DNA of 15,479 nt from a virus (taxonomy: Duplodnaviria; Heunggongvirae; Uroviricota; Caudoviricetes): the IMG/VR virus record IMGVR_UViG_2695420487_000018, one strand, 5' to 3'. The translations under genes and the position numbers were made by a program. The notes below the pieces were generated by a model. The model made no database searches, was not told where the DNA came from, and worked only from the letters and a program-made list of their open reading frames with translations. This document shows positions 1-15,479 of this stretch, piece after piece (position 1 is the stretch's first letter; each line of letters starts with the position of its first letter).

Positions 1-165
1 ATGGCAAAGCCGATCATCACGCTCAATGGCCTAAAAATCGTCATTATGTTGGGAATGCTGGTCATTATTCTCTGCGGTATCCGTTTTGCCGCCGAGATCA
101 TCGTGCCGTTTATTCTCGCATTATTTATTGCTGTTATATATAACTTATTTCACATAACACGTTGA
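1..165 (+). pseudogene. tqsA: Truncated 5' part of a host inner-membrane transporter gene (TqsA/YdgG-like); about 45 host-like codons, then 9 codons of AT-rich island DNA to a TGA
   Basis: ATG at 1; translation [45 protein letters not shown]... is a hydrophobic N-terminus I recognise from memory as E. coli-type TqsA (not searched). Composition switches abruptly to AT-rich at about 135-140. Confidence 0.45.
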
Positions 166-462
166 TTTAATTAAATAATTTTCACCACAAAAAGTGCCAA
201 AAATCGCAAAATGACTACACCAGTGACTACACCGTTCGGTGCACTGTATGAAACAACGTGGAACAAATAGACACAAGAAATATACAGGCGGATCATCTTT
301 CCAGGGGGAAGCGCACCAATTCATGAGGGGCGTTAATGTCGATATGGGGATCCCCACCTACCGGAATTTTTTTCCGGTTAAACGTTAATCAGGCTGGTGG
401 GCTTTACCTGTTCGGTAGGAGTTATGATTATCGTAATACCTTTCCCCCAATGGGGTAAAAGC

Positions 463-7539: not shown

Positions 7540-7546
7540 AAAAAAA

Positions 7547-7576
7547 GTCCTGGGGTTAAGTAAGGAACTCCAGGAC
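7547..7576 (-). promoter_or_regulatory. Hairpin immediately upstream of the capsid gene start; its 3' arm contains the only SD-like AGGA and is followed by U7 then AUG
   Basis: Minus-strand RNA GUCCUGG-AGUU-CCUUACUU-AACC-CCAGGAC-UUUUUUU-AUG; 7-bp perfect stem plus 3 further pairs after one mismatch. Confidence 0.45.
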
Positions 7577-7677: not shown

Positions 7678-7754
7678 GTGGCCCCAGCGTCCTGGCACCA
7701 CGGGCGAGAATAATCATGATTCAGTTCGGGTAAAATATGCCGATCCGCTCAGTG

Positions 7755-7779
7755 AACAACGTGGAACAACCACGAACAA
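7755..7779. promoter_or_regulatory. 25-bp dyad motif AACAACGTGGAACAACCACGAACAA (core CGTGG-AACAA-CCACG) upstream of the capsid operon; a second copy lies at 14170-14194 and a half-copy at 252-266
   Basis: Exact or near-exact matches found by eye (1 mismatch between the two full copies); both lie inside runs of 10-bp-phased ACAA/TGTT. Confidence 0.55.
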
Positions 7780-7796
7780 ATAATTTACAAAACATG

Positions 7797-7820
7797 ACAA
7801 AAAGCCGGATTGCTCCGGCT
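7797..7820 (-). terminator. Rho-independent terminator ending the replication/regulatory operon
   Basis: Minus-strand RNA AGCCGGA-GCAA-UCCGGCU followed by UUUUUGU, 7 nt after the stop of the 7827..8099 gene. Confidence 0.65.
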
Positions 7821-8803: not shown

Positions 8804-9120
8804 GTGCGGGTTATGCGGGTTATTGGGTTATCTTAGCGTGCTAACCATTTTTTATCCTTTTATATCAGCATGTTGCAAAACGCCCTGTTTATTATTTGCT
8901 CACCACATAACCCGCAAAACGCTCAAAATAACCCGCAAACGGGGTTTTTTCTGCGGGTTACGCATGACTGTCCGGTGTTACTTCAGTTATTCGCCTGCGG
9001 GTTATAATCGTGCTTTTGCGGGTTATAAATGCCCTTTTGCGGGTTACGTGCGGGTTATTGATTTCCTTTATATTCATGCGCTTAATACACTTATACACAG
9101 GATAACCCGCATAACCCGCA
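8804..9120. repeat. Iteron-type replication origin: about 12 copies of GCGGGTTA(T/C) (8 forward, 4 reverse) plus AT-rich tracts
   Basis: Forward copies at 8806, 8815, 8953, 8997, 9018, 9039, 9050 (and degenerate 8824); reverse ATAACCCGC at 8907, 8928, 9102, 9111; AT-rich 8780-8800 and 8840-8900; directly downstream of the rep gene. Confidence 0.8.
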
Positions 9121-12185: not shown

Positions 12186-12642
12186 GGCACACCCCCTGAC
12201 GAATACGGGCGACAAAAATCAGATGTGCGTGCGGCAGCTGGGCGCGGGCTTCGCGTTCAGTGGCTGCGGTAACGGTGTAAATATCAATGCTGCTGTGGTG
12301 GCACTGCATAAAGCGCCAGACAAAGTAAGGGCGTGCGGATACAGCCATGTGAAAGGCTCCCAGATGAATTTTAAGGAGTCTCGCTACTACGCTGCTAAAC
12401 ATGGTGGCGAGACGTAACAGGGTTAGCAGACTGGTCATCTGGAAACCAGCGAGCACAAAGGCTCCCCCGTTACGCCCCGCCATAATGCGGGTATGGGTAG
12501 GTTTACGGACACAAAAAAACCGCTTATCGGATGTGGGCGGCTGTCCGCCAGATGTATTCAGGCTGCTAAACCCGGTCGCCATGTGGGCGACGGGGGAAGC
12601 ATACAGCCCCGTGATAATTTTTTGCAAGCGGTTTTTACGCAT
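12178..12642 (-). CDS. Hypothetical protein; C-terminal about 55 aa paralogous to the 12635..12907 product
   Basis: Track ORF 12178..12684; ATG at 12642. C-terminal motifs FVWRF, TEREAR, ARIRQG are shared with the upstream gene, with third-position differences (GTC/GTG, CGC/CGT). Confidence 0.45.
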   Translation of the reverse strand: MRKNRLQKIITGLYASPVAHMATGFSSLNTSGGQPPTSDKRFFCVRKPTHTRIMAGRNGGAFVLAGFQMTSLLTLLRLATMFSSVVARLLKIHLGAFHMAVSARPYFVWRFMQCHHSSIDIYTVTAATEREARAQLPHAHLIFVARIRQGVCRA

Positions 12643-12907
12643 GATGTGACCCCTGACGAATACGGGCGGCAAATACAGCAACACAACCTGACGGGCAACG
12701 GCTACGCGCTTCGCGTTCCGTCCAGGCGGTTACGTGGATGATTTGAGATTCTCCGGCACTCAGTGCCAGAAAACGCCACACAAAGGCCGTTTGTGTGTGT
12801 ACAAGGTGTGGTATATGATTTACAGCAACCATAACGGCTCCTAGTTTACGTTGTTGGTTAGAAGCCCTGCGAGTGGTAACGACACTTGCGGGGCTTTGTC
12901 TTTTCAT
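12635..12907 (-). CDS. Hypothetical small protein (65-90 aa), first gene of the leftward operon; paralog of the next gene's C-terminal domain
   Basis: ATG at 12907 (AAGG upstream) or 12832 (AGGAG 5 nt upstream); same conserved motifs as the downstream paralog. Confidence 0.5.
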   Translation of the reverse strand: MKRQSPASVVTTRRASNQQRKLGAVMVAVNHIPHLVHTQTAFVWRFLALSAGESQIIHVTAWTEREARSRCPSGCVAVFAARIRQGSHHA

Positions 12908-12923
12908 CGATTACCTTGATAAA

Positions 12924-13006
12924 GGTGTCAGCCACTATATTAGTAACGGGTGTCAGCCACGTCAATAGTGTTTTTCCGTTTTCTTGTGTGTATACTGTCA
13001 GCCACC
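12924..13006. promoter_or_regulatory. Divergent promoter/operator region: leftward promoter TTGACG-N17-TAATAT (minus strand), rightward -10 TATACT, and three direct repeats TGTCAGCCAC
   Basis: Minus-strand -35 is rc of 12960-12965 and -10 is rc of 12937-12942 with a 17-nt spacer. Repeats at 12926-12935, 12951-12960 and 12996-13005 overlap promoter elements on both strands. Confidence 0.6.
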
Positions 13007-13026
13007 TAATAACGAGGAAATCAGAT

Positions 13027-13206
13027 ATGGCAACAAAAGCAGTTAATGCAAAATCCAAAAAGCTTGAGGCTCGAGTACCACACGCAATAGCTGATGCTGT
13101 AGAAAATTTAAAGGAAGATGGCGAAAGTACAGGGCAATTTATCGTTTCGGCACTTGAAGGCGAGATCAAACGCCGCCAGCGCCGCAAGGCCAAAGAATCA
13201 GAATAA
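13027..13206 (+). CDS. Small DNA-binding protein, ribbon-helix-helix-like (59 aa); candidate regulator of the switch
   Basis: GAGGA 8 nt upstream of the ATG; pattern KKLEARVPHAIADAVENLKEDGESTGQFIVSALEGEI fits a beta-strand plus two helices; basic C-terminal tail. Confidence 0.55.
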   Translation: MATKAVNAKSKKLEARVPHAIADAVENLKEDGESTGQFIVSALEGEIKRRQRRKAKESE

Positions 13207-13248
13207 TCACTATCAGCGCCGTGGTGTGAGGTATTACGGCGCATTGCT

Positions 13249-13437
13249 ATGCAGGACAACACAATGACCGATAAAGAATTGACCAAAACATTATCACCGG
13301 CACGGAAAAGACGGCGCAGAAAGATAGAGCATGAATCAGAAAGATTCGCACCATGTGCTTTTGCCCTTGAGCAATTCCTTAAAGAGTACAGGGAAAAGCG
13401 CTCATTGCAGGTATGGCAACGAACTGAACCAGACTGA
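13249..13437 (+). CDS. Possible small basic protein (62 aa)
   Basis: ORF between the RHH-like gene and the plus-strand terminator; no convincing SD. Confidence 0.25.
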   Translation: MQDNTMTDKELTKTLSPARKRRRRKIEHESERFAPCAFALEQFLKEYREKRSLQVWQRTEPD

Positions 13438-13532
13438 TTGCATTGCCCACCAGCCTGATAGCGGCTATCATCCCCGTGCTTATGTTTGGGATCACACACA
13501 CAAACGGCGCAGCGGGTTATCTGTTCAGAAAG

Positions 13533-13560
13533 GCGGCTCCATTTCGGGGCCGCTTTTTTT
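13533..13560 (+). terminator. Rho-independent terminator of the rightward unit
   Basis: GCGGCTCC-ATTTC-GGGGCCGC (8-bp stem with one G-U) followed by TTTTTTT. Confidence 0.7.
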
Positions 13561-13706
13561 ATACCTGAAAAACCCCAATTTTGTTGTTTTTCAGTTTCAC
13601 CAGGGCGAACGAATCCCCGCCCACGTTCTGGCGTATATTCAATCTTCATGGTTATAGCTCTGTGTTCAGATGATTGATGTGTGGCGGCTGCGTGCCGCCA
13701 GCGTGA

Positions 13707-13895
13707 TTAATGAACTGCCTTGCAGCTATCCTTCCAGGCCAGAACCTCGGATAAAGACCAGCCAACGGAACGACCGCCAAGTTTACGACGTGATGGGAAT
13801 TGTCCGGCCTTTTCCAGGCGGTAGCGACACGTACGGCTAAGGCCGGTTAGTTTTTCGCATTCTTTTTCACGTATAAACCGATCAGTGCTTAACAC
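13707..13895 (-). CDS. alpA: AlpA-family transcriptional regulator (excisionase-like HTH)
   Basis: 62-aa ORF ...KECEKLTGLSRTCRYRLEKAGQFPSRRKLGGRSVGWSLSEVLAWK... matches the AlpA pattern; GTG start with AGGGGGG 6 nt upstream; sits next to int. Confidence 0.8.
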   Translation of the reverse strand: MLSTDRFIREKECEKLTGLSRTCRYRLEKAGQFPSRRKLGGRSVGWSLSEVLAWKDSCKAVH

Positions 13896-14047
13896 TATTG
13901 CCCCCCCTTTCGTTTCTTAAAGAGTCATCAGGTGTCTTATTGTGTCGTATTGTTCCCGCTAGAGTGATGAATGGCAAATATTGAGGATGTATGATTTACA
14001 GAAAATGAAACAGTAAGAATAAAATCTTTTAAATTCATGTTAATACA

Positions 14048-14094
14048 AAGGCATAAAATATTGTTTCATGCCTTTTTTCTCGCTCTTTAAAGAG
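14048..14094. other. Hairpin AAGGCAT-N13-ATGCCTT followed by TTTTCT on the plus strand, then a perfect 12-bp palindrome CTCTTTAAAGAG (14083-14094)
   Basis: Read directly from the sequence; lies between int and alpA; the strand on which it would terminate is ambiguous. Confidence 0.4.
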
Positions 14095-14169
14095 TGATTC
14101 GCTAGTGTATAAAAAACCAGTGACACATTAAAAATCAGCCACTTATAAATCTGTATGCTTTTTCGCCTC

Positions 14170-14220
14170 TTGTTCGTGGTTGTTCCACATTGTTGCTCAT
14201 TGTTGCACGTTGTATCTGTT
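14170..14220. promoter_or_regulatory. Second copy of the 25-bp dyad motif (rc AACAATGTGGAACAACCACGAACAA) within five 10-bp-phased TGTT units, upstream of alpA
   Basis: 14171-14220 reads tgttcgtggt/tgttccacat/tgttgctcat/tgttgcacgt/tgtatctgtt; one mismatch relative to the 7755-7779 copy. Confidence 0.55.
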
Positions 14221-14261
14221 CGCATATACAGTATGCGCATACTGAAAAAACACGAAAAAAA

Positions 14262-15479
14262 TTATTTTCTTCTGGCTACTGGTAGCGTGGTTACGTTTTC
14301 ATGTGTTCCCGCCAGTATCCCTAACCGCTCCGTCCACATATCCAGCGCATTGCGTTTAGCATCCAGATAACGGGAATGATTATAAACTCGCTGCATTCCT
14401 GGCATCTGGTGGCCTGTAAGCTGCTCCACGACATGCGGATCAACGCCTAAATCGTTCAGCATCGTTGTAAAGGTGCGCCGGATGTCATGCAGTGACCAGT
14501 GAGGATGATTAAGCCTCCTGTGCGCTAATCTTCCATACTGCGATACGCTGGCCTCCTGTTTCACTTCCCCCAGCAATAAGCCCGTGTGCCTGTTCTGCTC
14601 CACCAGCTGCGTGACGAACGGCAGGATCGCTTCCGGTATGGGCCGGAATATTGCGACCTTCGTTTTGCTGTGCTCCTTCGGAACGGTCCATAGCATTTCC
14701 GTAAAATCCCACTCTCCGATCTCCGATAACCTCAGTTCTACCGTTCTGGCTCCGAAGACAATCAGGAGGCGGATTAACGCGACGTAGTAAGGGGAGAATA
14801 TTTTTTTGTCCAGTGCCTGCAATAATTCGCCAAGTTCTTTGTTACTTAAGACACGTTCGCTTATATCCGGTTTTTTCCCAACGTCCGCCACGTTCAGATC
14901 GTCCAGAACGTTGCTGATTGCATAGCGCCGCCTACGGCAGAACTTAAGCGCCTGTTTGCACGCCTGTAGCACGAATCCGGCAGTAACAGGCGTTCGCTTT
15001 GCCACCTGGTCAAAACAGGCCAGCCAGTGCCGTAGCTCGCATTTATCCAGCGGCATAGCACCAATCTGCTGTATTACGTGATTATTAAGTCGCCTTTTCA
15101 GGGCGATATAATCCACGCGGTTTTCCTTTACGTAATACTCAAGCCAGTAGGTGAGCGCATCGCCAACCGTTACCGGCTTTAACGCTTCCTGTACGGTGTA
15201 ATTAAGCTCATGACGTGGATTTTTCCCCTCTGCCAGCCATGCGCGACACTGGGCGGCTTTTTCCCTGGCTGATTTCAGGCTCAGATCAGGATAACTTCCC
15301 AGCTTAATGCGTTCGGGTCGTGTCTCCCTTCCCGTTCCGGCCCTGTATGTGAAATACCAGGTCAATTTCCCTGATGTTAAATATTTCACGCTCAGGTTTC
15401 CGCCATCACTATAAAACGTGTTTTTCTCCGCTGGCTTACCATGAAGTTTCCTTAGCAAGGTATCGCTCAGTTTGTTCAT
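14262..15479 (-). CDS. int: Tyrosine site-specific integrase (P4-like, with N-terminal arm-binding domain)
   Basis: 405-aa ORF starting at the window edge; catalytic-domain motifs HDIRRTF and RVYNHSRY; N-terminus GNLSVKYLTSGKLTWYFTYR typical of arm-binding domains. Confidence 0.9.
   Translation of the reverse strand: MNKLSDTLLRKLHGKPAEKNTFYSDGGNLSVKYLTSGKLTWYFTYRAGTGRETRPERIKLGSYPDLSLKSAREKAAQCRAWLAEGKNPRHELNYTVQEALKPVTVGDALTYWLEYYVKENRVDYIALKRRLNNHVIQQIGAMPLDKCELRHWLACFDQVAKRTPVTAGFVLQACKQALKFCRRRRYAISNVLDDLNVADVGKKPDISERVLSNKELGELLQALDKKIFSPYYVALIRLLIVFGARTVELRLSEIGEWDFTEMLWTVPKEHSKTKVAIFRPIPEAILPFVTQLVEQNRHTGLLLGEVKQEASVSQYGRLAHRRLNHPHWSLHDIRRTFTTMLNDLGVDPHVVEQLTGHQMPGMQRVYNHSRYLDAKRNALDMWTERLGILAGTHENVTTLPVARRK

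Follow-up and report, generated by a model that had tools for sequence, protein, structure and literature searches.

Helically phased repeats between int and alpA of a capsid-forming phage-inducible island as candidate operators for the excisionase-like protein AlpA

Here, we propose that the 10-bp-phased repeats lying between int and alpA in the virus record IMGVR_UViG_2695420487_000018 (15,479 nucleotides, hereafter the window), together with their copies elsewhere, may be head-to-tail operators for the island's own AlpA protein, in the style of recombination directionality factors (RDFs) and with DNA bending by integration host factor (IHF). We give this reading a probability of roughly 0.55. 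The window is a capsid-forming phage-inducible chromosomal island (cf-PICI) within Escherichia coli tqsA, and it is assigned to the EcCIEDL933 type (10.1101/2022.09.08.507074) because it is 99.3% identical to the islands of O157:H7 strains. All island genes are carried on the minus strand. The first-pass annotation of this DNA had labelled int and alpA correctly (Table 1); with both on the minus strand, the 366 bp from the int stop to the alpA start, home of the features studied here, are therefore a co-directional spacer and not a divergent region. The spacer has a GC content of 35%, against 51% for the window.

On the plus strand of the spacer, TTGT begins at 14170, 14180, 14190, 14200 and 14210, a phase of exactly 10 bp, and Tandem Repeats Finder (TRF) reports a period of 10 across 14180-14213. 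The first-pass annotation had described five 10-bp-phased TGTT units. Five units are indeed in phase when read as TTGT, whereas as TGTT only four are (14171-14201), the fifth reading TGTA and another TGTT, at 14217, lying out of phase with the array. Chains of at least four phased units were found in 0 of 300 shuffles of the whole window and 0 of 2000 shuffles of the spacer, and 921 kb of unrelated natural DNA held a single one, a CAA microsatellite (equal to 0.017 per 15.5 kb). The phasing of this distal array is far above chance.

For comparison, we gathered 33 distinct homologous spacers (63-98% identity to the window) from E. coli genomes, EcCICFT073 (L018; Int WP_000085269, AlpA WP_000953274), and IMG/VR contigs. 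Conservation of the phasing in homologues had been named beforehand as a check, and the phasing is kept in all 33, with invariant ACAA cores (the minus-strand reading of TTGT) and variable bases between them. Window-type spacers have five units and EcCICFT073-type spacers six to seven. Insertions and deletions in the arrays comprise whole units: the window lineage has lost 10 bp, strain CH4799 has gained exactly one GACACAATCC unit, and in either case the promoter-like TTGCCA-17-NACAAT stays intact. From these alignments, we conclude that the phased repeats are a conserved, non-random array of predicted protein-binding sites. The earlier suggestion that helical phasing reflects wrapping or bending by a protein is supported by this conservation, by the recurrence of the array at the attachment (att) arms and the capsid operon, by a conserved IHF consensus 20 bp from the distal array, and by the neighbouring gene with its excisionase fold.

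Across 24 distinct arrays (105 units) of related islands, the unit consensus is wG(G/A)A-ACAA-y. These arrays hold 3-7 units, all of one unit type, and their places are the int-alpA spacer, both att arms, and the region ahead of the late (capsid) operon. Among 25 IMG/VR relatives and EcCICFT073, all ACAA chains of at least three units stand at homologous places except one (L022 position 2324). In the window, the left-arm array (251-280) is set in by about 115 bp from the island's left end, beside a doubled 12-bp motif, and an identical module stands at the right arm just outside the window; EcCICFT073 likewise has an array beside the doubled motif at its att arms. The two arm modules are co-oriented, each with GACTACACC twice followed by three or four ACAA units, at differing distances of about 75-145 bp from the core. 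Within the island, the doubled GACTACACC motif (GTGACTACACC twice, at 12-bp spacing) is confined to the att arms.

A further array of five units, inverted, precedes the capsid operon and has the 19-mer GTGGAACAACCACGAACAA in common with the distal array. It is kept in other capsid-forming islands and, in a comparison of those islands, is absent from the EcCICFT073 and 042 islands. Two intrinsic terminators on the operon's own strand enclose it: one after perC (7820..7803, -13.2 kcal/mol, then U5) and a second (7575..7541, -14.1 kcal/mol) whose hairpin and U7 end 1 nt before the capsid ATG. The equivalent site of EcCICFT073 has three terminator-like hairpins and no array. Late-gene expression may depend on read-through.

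Why AlpA? Its AlphaFold (AF2) model is a three-helix winged helix (predicted local distance difference test score 86.5), and the top fold matches are the GIsul2 excisionase 8c3t (template modelling scores 0.83/0.90, 38% identity), which is also the sole sequence-level PDB match, followed by RdfS, Pukovnik Xis, and TorI. Thus, AlpA models as an excisionase-type winged helix, and the island annotation lists no xis-like gene other than alpA. RDFs bind cooperatively to direct repeats one helical turn apart and bend them (PMC7498355), as with 186 Apl, whose sites number five at attP and seven at pR-pL (PMC7498355), and RdfS binds attP plus its own promoter (PMC11963761). Three hallmarks of such an array are present in the island: direct repeats in phase (three or more), further copies on its att arms, and a gene for a cognate winged-helix RDF. 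In EcCICFT073, AlpA supplied from pBAD-alpA activates the PalpA reporter pJP2038 in DH5alpha, in the absence of Int or the island, and AlpA overexpression sets off int-dependent excision (PMC6092414). By primer mapping, the pJP2038 insert corresponds to L018 4628-5083, starting 33 nt ahead of the int stop and ending at alpA codon 19, and so comprises the whole spacer with distal array, IHF site, and hairpin. Since this reporter is activated without Int, AlpA acts on the spacer DNA independently of Int.

Table 1. Coordinates of the features discussed, numbered in the window unless another record is named
Feature	Position	Strand	Description
Distal array, predicted operators	14161..14215	-	five head-to-tail units, ATACAACGTG CAACAATGAG CAACAATGTG GAACAACCAC GAACAAGAGG
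Predicted IHF site	14133..14145	+	consensus match AATCAGCCACTTA (WATCARNNNNTTR) with 5' A/T tract
Two A-tracts	14243..14264	+	spaced by about 11 bp (TGAAAAAACACGAAAAAAATTA), adjoining the int stop on its 3' side, flanking the array
alpA promoter candidate	13949..13977	-	TTGCCA-17-AACAAT, top conserved score in the promoter scan
Proximal array	13935..13958	-	2-3 ACAAT units at 10-bp spacing (GGAACAATAC GACACAATAA GACACC), overlapping the candidate -10 and the leader start
Conserved A/T-rich block	13995..14043		promoter-like elements on both strands
Hairpin with flanking tracts	14042..14078	-	A6 tract, 9-bp hairpin GGCAUGAAA/UUUUAUGCC (14072..14050), then UUUGUAUU; from folding and variants
Conserved box, copy 1	14085..14099	-	AATCACTCTTTAAAG (family AATSACTCTTWAA); the 12-bp palindrome is this box plus a lineage-specific right half
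Conserved box, copy 2	13915..13929	-	GATGACTCTTTAAGA, leader of alpA, immediately before the Shine-Dalgarno sequence
Conserved box, third exact copy	13379..13387	-	ACTCTTTAA, within an annotated pseudogene or small open reading frame stretch
Left att-arm module	211..282	+	doubled 12-bp motif ATGACTACACCA GTGACTACACC, then three-unit ACAA array (253, 263, 273)
Right att-arm module	L010 15518-15585		identical, just outside the window, upstream of int; four ACAA units 15548-15578
att core	~130-138		TGCTGTTAT, inside the palindrome GTTATATATAAC (133-144)
Further five-unit ACAA array, inverted	7752..7802	+	units 7756-7797, between the post-perC terminator and the capsid operon
int	15479..14262	-	Arm-DNA-bind_3 and Phage_integrase domains
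alpA	13895..13707	-	62 aa, PF05930, Pfam E=5e-17

The remainder of the spacer is also ordered. Read in the minus direction, its conserved blocks run from the A/T tracts after the int stop through the ACAA array and the opposite-strand IHF consensus to ACTGGTTTTTTATACAYT..GAAT-ACTCTTWAA, the A6 tract with the hairpin, ATGAATT.AAA, TTTT, and TTCTGTAAA, and end with TTTGCCA, (A/C)ACAAT at 17 nt (the first proximal unit), ACTCTTTAAGAAA, the Shine-Dalgarno sequence, and the alpA start. The IHF consensus is kept at the homologous position in 32 of the 33 spacers, its NNNN varying (CCAC, CTAC, ATGG, CTTT, and others); a shuffled spacer contains any IHF match with P=0.08. The A-tracts are almost invariant in the alignment and probably consist of DNA that is intrinsically bent or prone to H-NS binding.

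In a position weight matrix (PWM) scan, TTGCCA-17-(A/C)ACAAT was present in 32/33 spacers, and its 17-nt geometry persists through an exact 10-bp (one-unit) indel between lineages. It is the best candidate for the alpA promoter. Weaker candidates are the conserved TTTAAT-17-TACAYT, upstream of the hairpin (-10 at 14109..14104), and TTAACA-16-TATYCT, seen in the window lineage only. The A/T-rich block carries TTAACA-16-TATTCT (14043..14016) on the minus strand and TTTACA (13995-14000)-N17-AATAAA (14018-14023) on the plus strand, and ATGAATT and TTCTGTAAA are invariant within it. For the proximal array, TRF reports a period of 10 at 13932-13953, and the spacer of L007 has one exact additional 10-bp unit there. 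A hairpin in the alpA leader that would sequester the Shine-Dalgarno sequence (CUCUUU/AAAGGG) was predicted, yet it does not exceed shuffles (z -1.05, +0.42) and was set aside.

The hairpin with a plus-strand T-run reported in the first-pass annotation is present (hairpin 14050-14072, T6 14073-14078). On the plus as on the minus strand it folds better than shuffles (z -3.7 and -4.3, respectively), and a simple terminator scan called it on neither. In the minus-strand RNA, the 9-bp stem shows no break in any of the 15 sequence variants (-5.8 to -9.3 kcal/mol). Of seven independent stem substitutions, six (A-to-G or C-to-U) keep G.U pairs on that strand only (P of about 0.06), and one stem pair has been compensated from G.U to G-C. 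At the yljB/cspD site, a sister PICI lineage carries, directly after int, a canonical hairpin and U7 on the sense strand. Because the minus-strand stem is intact and the sister lineage has a terminator after int, we read the hairpin as probably a terminator or insulator of int, acting on RNA of the int/alpA sense.

In light of these parts, how might AlpA work? AlpA monomers would occupy the G(G/A)AACAA units head-to-tail, one helical turn apart, and their cooperative binding would bend or loop the AT-rich spacer, aided by IHF and the flanking A-tracts. The resulting nucleoprotein structure would raise alpA transcription from one or more downstream promoters, with TTGCCA-17-AACAAT the best candidate, and the outcome in the spacer would be positive autoregulation, as measured for EcCICFT073. 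The hairpin would stop constitutive int transcription from entering alpA, the master activator. At the att arms, the arrays beside the Int doublets would let AlpA serve as an excision factor, and in cf-PICIs an additional array copy stands ahead of the packaging operon. Activation could instead proceed by relief of silencing, given that the alpA promoter of Shewanella CP4So is a target of H-NS (PMC5148205).

Several points weigh against this reading. We infer AlpA as the binder of the arrays, as well as the bending, the promoter used, and termination at the hairpin, and for AlpA the grounds are co-occurrence and the behaviour of its protein family. The arrays stand on both att arms, where classical RDF sites are usually on one. 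One array lies just upstream of int, despite Pint not responding to AlpA: Fillol-Salom et al. (2018) found AlpA to be without effect on Pint (PMC6092414). The geometry of activation is a difficulty because the proximal units overlap the candidate -10, a placement that is normally repressive, and because some 190-240 bp separate the distal array from the best promoter candidate. The PWM scan found several conserved promoter-like candidates on both strands of this AT-rich DNA, so that its promoter assignment is not decisive. At the hairpin, the minus-strand U-tract, UUUGUAUU in the window, falls to 1-2 U in three variants, and the plus-strand T6-7 run (minus-strand A6) is invariant in 15/15. Nor did covariation of the array motif with AlpA settle the matter. 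A contig scan gave no more than 3 loci and a protein search no more than 19 close matches. Distant PICIs (L012 and L143, with AlpA 60-66% identical) retain a (G/A)ACTACACC doublet and have 10-bp-phased units centred on CGAAC/TTCG instead of ACAA (L012 4340-4480 and 2790-2850; L143 1290-1400). This shift is seen at the att arm and, in L012 and L013, also upstream of alpA, but the difference between ACAA and CGAAC is too small to assign the binder. In addition, L140 and L143 have other gene layouts; L143 keeps the arm array, with a different layout before alpA.

One other option is that the distal array is a docking site for a factor of the helper phage or the host, such as an excisionase-type protein of the helper, after the model of P2 Cox, with AlpA sharing the array or using the AATSACTCTTWAA boxes. 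In P4, three 10-bp-phased repeats, the reverse complement of TTAAAGNCA, stand upstream of vis, the alpA homologue, and TTAAAGNCA is the P2 Cox-box consensus. P2 Cox binds the 10-bp-phased boxes upstream of P4 vis and switches the satellite on. Helper phages induce alpA transcription through a factor still unidentified as of 2018 (PMC6092414), AlpA-family excisionases cross-complement helper phage Xis (PMC11773190), and the spacer does contain a second conserved repeated box. Nonetheless, the arrays at both att arms favour an RDF encoded by the island itself, the spacer reporter responds to AlpA alone, and helpers as unlike as lambda and phi80 would all have to recognise one unit. We thus consider a helper or host factor unlikely as the principal occupant.

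Alternatively, the ACAA arrays could be extra arm-type sites for the N-terminal domain of Int, which would then repress or organise the spacer and the pre-capsid region. Int has an Arm-DNA-bind_3 domain, the arrays adjoin the doubled motif on both att arms, and the lambda P'1-P'3 arm sites are likewise adjacent direct repeats. Known arm motifs in this group, however, are tandem doublets at 12 bp: the P4 record annotates TGGGGGCAT twice at 12 bp on both arms as an 'attP arm sequence repeat', and in the helper-embedded PICIs (HE-PICIs) tgTGTATTGCa occurs as a doublet at -81 and +132 relative to the attP centre (PMC10111431), which other PICIs lack according to the authors of that study. The island has such doublets. 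By analogy, its GACTACACC doublets look like putative Int arm sites, whose four half-sites would serve an Int tetramer. With the four arm sites already filled in this way, the ACAA arrays would require another binder. Moreover, the PalpA spacer has arrays without a doublet and responds to AlpA in a host lacking Int, so that binding by Int is improbable.

A third alternative concerns the hairpin, which with its T-run might end a plus-strand RNA of about 45-50 nt, divergent from alpA or antisense to its leader, that would damp alpA. The first-pass annotation had proposed a short plus-strand RNA ending near 14078. Besides the invariant T-run, the plus strand offers invariant TTTACA and AATAAA at a spacing of 16/17 nt, about 30-50 nt upstream of the hairpin, and a strong stem in 6/15 variants (-8.8 to -9.4 kcal/mol). 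Yet this stem is broken or lost in the other 9/15, the window included (-5.3 kcal/mol in the window, 0.0 in L022), whereas the minus-strand stem is intact in all; the stem substitutions favour the minus strand; the -10-like AATAAA lacks the key final T; and Rfam gave no family match at the hairpin. The proposed RNA thus fared poorly, and we regard it as doubtful, although a bidirectional terminator, or a hairpin with a tiny plus-strand RNA, is possible.

More speculatively, the array, the IHF site, and the A-tracts might together be the entry point for helper-phage induction of Gram-negative PICIs, which we see as a long shot. The spacer would be silenced, as by H-NS at the Shewanella alpA promoter, until a helper protein of the excisionase type, produced when the prophage is induced, cross-bound the ACAA units in the manner of P2 Cox upstream of P4 vis, nucleated a filament, and set off an initial burst of alpA. 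From that point, AlpA itself would act at these sites, leading to autoregulation, excision at the att arms, and control of the late operon.

Finally, it is very improbable that the repeats are replication iterons or lambda CII-type sites: ten-bp direct repeats do occur in the P4 ori region and there is one TTGC-N6-TTGC match, at 14193-14206, but the island has its own iteron block of TGCGGGTTA repeats downstream of the primase gene, and the CII-like match, rejected as a CII site, is lost in the O157 and EcCICFT073 spacers, where the ACAA cores remain.

That block, at 8805-9120, is made up of TGCGGGTTA / ATAACCCGC repeats, some in tandem and others dispersed, among them a 21-bp unit in 2.4 copies, and is probably the replication origin of the island.

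The spacer also holds the perfect 12-bp palindrome CTCTTTAAAGAG that the first-pass annotation had singled out (14083-14094). Perfect 12-bp palindromes number nine in the window and 3.6 in shuffles, and shuffling the spacer yields one or more with P=0.14; CTCTTTAAAGAG is within chance expectation. Its left half is invariant and its right half is not, and outside one sub-lineage the palindromic form is not retained. Some variants of the window lineage hold the dyad through a compensated change of CTCT/AGAG to CGC/GCG, and in EcCICFT073-type spacers the dyad is absent at this position. With an unconserved right half and an ordinary frequency, the palindrome was rejected as a conserved dyad operator. 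The element that recurs is the box in its left half: ACTCTTWAA occurs three times on one strand, in EcCICFT073 as well as the window (P=0.002 against shuffles), the ACTCTTTAAGAAA sequence of the leader is invariant in 33/33 spacers, and the third copy has identical flanks in EcCICFT073 (L018 5793-5801). A separate perfect palindrome of 16 bp, CAGTATGCGCATACTG, lies at 14229-14244 between the A-tracts and the distal array in the window lineage only; EcCICFT073-type spacers have extra ACAAC units at this position instead.

The setting of the spacer is that of a Gram-negative PICI and cf-PICI, with co-directional int-alpA-pri-rep, its own set of genes from capsid to TerL, and no tail genes. Apart from int and alpA, the island encodes a DUF927 primase, Ssb, major capsid protein, protease, portal, connectors, HNH, TerS, and TerL. 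The 5' part of tqsA occupies window bases 1 to about 140, and the opposite junction lies about 190 bp past the window end. The int-alpA spacer was found in 904 of 5426 complete E. coli genomes. In E. coli 042, the 671 bases searched (13650-14320: alpA, the spacer, and the 3' end of int) are 100% identical to the window, in an island that is otherwise non-capsid-forming, of the short EcCICFT073 type with a different capsid module; L084, conversely, combines an EcCICFT073-type spacer with a cf-type late array. As judged from these comparisons, the islands are mosaic, the integration/regulation module and the late module having been swapped independently. Two open reading frames (ORFs) in the spacer, 14240..14040(-) of 66 aa and 14155..14370(+) of 71 aa, were rejected as genes, having no Pfam match and frame-breaking indels among homologues.

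Elsewhere in the island, Rfam placed a C4 antisense RNA at 12400-12604 (-) with 72.7 bits, above the gathering score; in the same region, the a1/b1 target scored 45.5 bits, just under its gathering score, and isrK 36.8 bits, below it. These matches, all on the minus strand, lie upstream of an Icd-like gene and mark an antisense-RNA immunity module of the P1/P7/P4 style. A strong G+C hairpin, GGCGGCTCCATTTCGGGGCCGC, at 13527-13560 has T7 on the plus strand and A7 before the hairpin on the minus strand. It falls inside a 263-aa ORF (13649..12858), an incomplete pseudogene in RefSeq, and is probably the terminator of a plus-strand gene of the YlcI/YnfO family, possibly a bidirectional one.

AlpA is the master switch of Gram-negative phage-inducible islands, including the capsid-forming ones, which occur in roughly one in six complete E. 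coli genomes, those of O157:H7 among them. The parts list given here, comprising the phased array, IHF site, two repeated boxes, sense-strand hairpin, promoter candidates, and att-arm arrays with Int doublets, opens autoregulation, excision directionality, and helper induction to direct experiment. It suggests that one protein, through one type of site, couples expression, excision and, in cf-PICIs, control of the packaging genes.

How does this compare with known systems? The EcCICFT073 spacer is homologous to that of the window, 68% identical, with the same blocks and the same Int/AlpA family; the work on its PalpA mapped no cis element (Fillol-Salom et al. 2018, PMC6092414). A literature search likewise found no mapped AlpA site, helper inducer, or small RNA at the int-alpA locus. 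The AlpA of Pseudomonas aeruginosa uses a promoter-embedded binding element followed by intrinsic terminators ahead of its target genes (PMC7969949), an analogy with some appeal, as there are intrinsic terminators before alpA and directly before the capsid gene. However, the P. aeruginosa protein is a Q21-like antiterminator of 8 helices that forms a ring at the RNA exit channel (PMC9371919), whereas PICI AlpA is a 62-aa winged helix, and a sequence search gave no match between PICI AlpA and the P. aeruginosa AlpA chains. We rejected the homology, the likeness being one of name.

P4 shares with the island an integrase of the P4 type and, on each arm, tandem repeats at 12 bp, and its Vis protein, like AlpA, belongs to PF05930, acts as both excisionase and regulator, and has 10-bp-phased repeats upstream of its gene. 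Vis represses PLL in P4. The two elements differ in gene order and orientation, the island having int and then alpA, co-directional; the repeats upstream of vis are Cox boxes for the RDF of the helper; and the arm motif is TGGGGGCAT in P4 and GACTACACC in the island.

Similar in operator design are 186 Apl and P2 Cox, with five to seven one-turn direct repeats at attP and in the regulatory region, bound cooperatively by a small, monomeric, DNA-bending protein (PMC7498355), as we propose for AlpA. The island differs in bearing arrays on both att arms and in its unit, GRAACAA against the cox box TTAAAGNCA; furthermore, Apl and Cox repress face-to-face switch promoters, whereas PICI AlpA is reported as an activator of its own gene. 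RdfS of ICEMlSymR7A, one of the top structural matches to the AlpA model, couples expression to excision by binding within attP and in its own promoter (PMC11963761), in the manner proposed for AlpA. Its sites have no recognisable consensus and it forms a filament through an extra N-terminal helix, whereas the AlpA model is without a helix of this type and the island has a clear phased consensus. Thus, the kind of operator proposed here is itself known; in the literature searched, the array, predicted IHF site, boxes, and probable terminator are not described for PICIs, with the HE-PICI doublet as the nearest known element.

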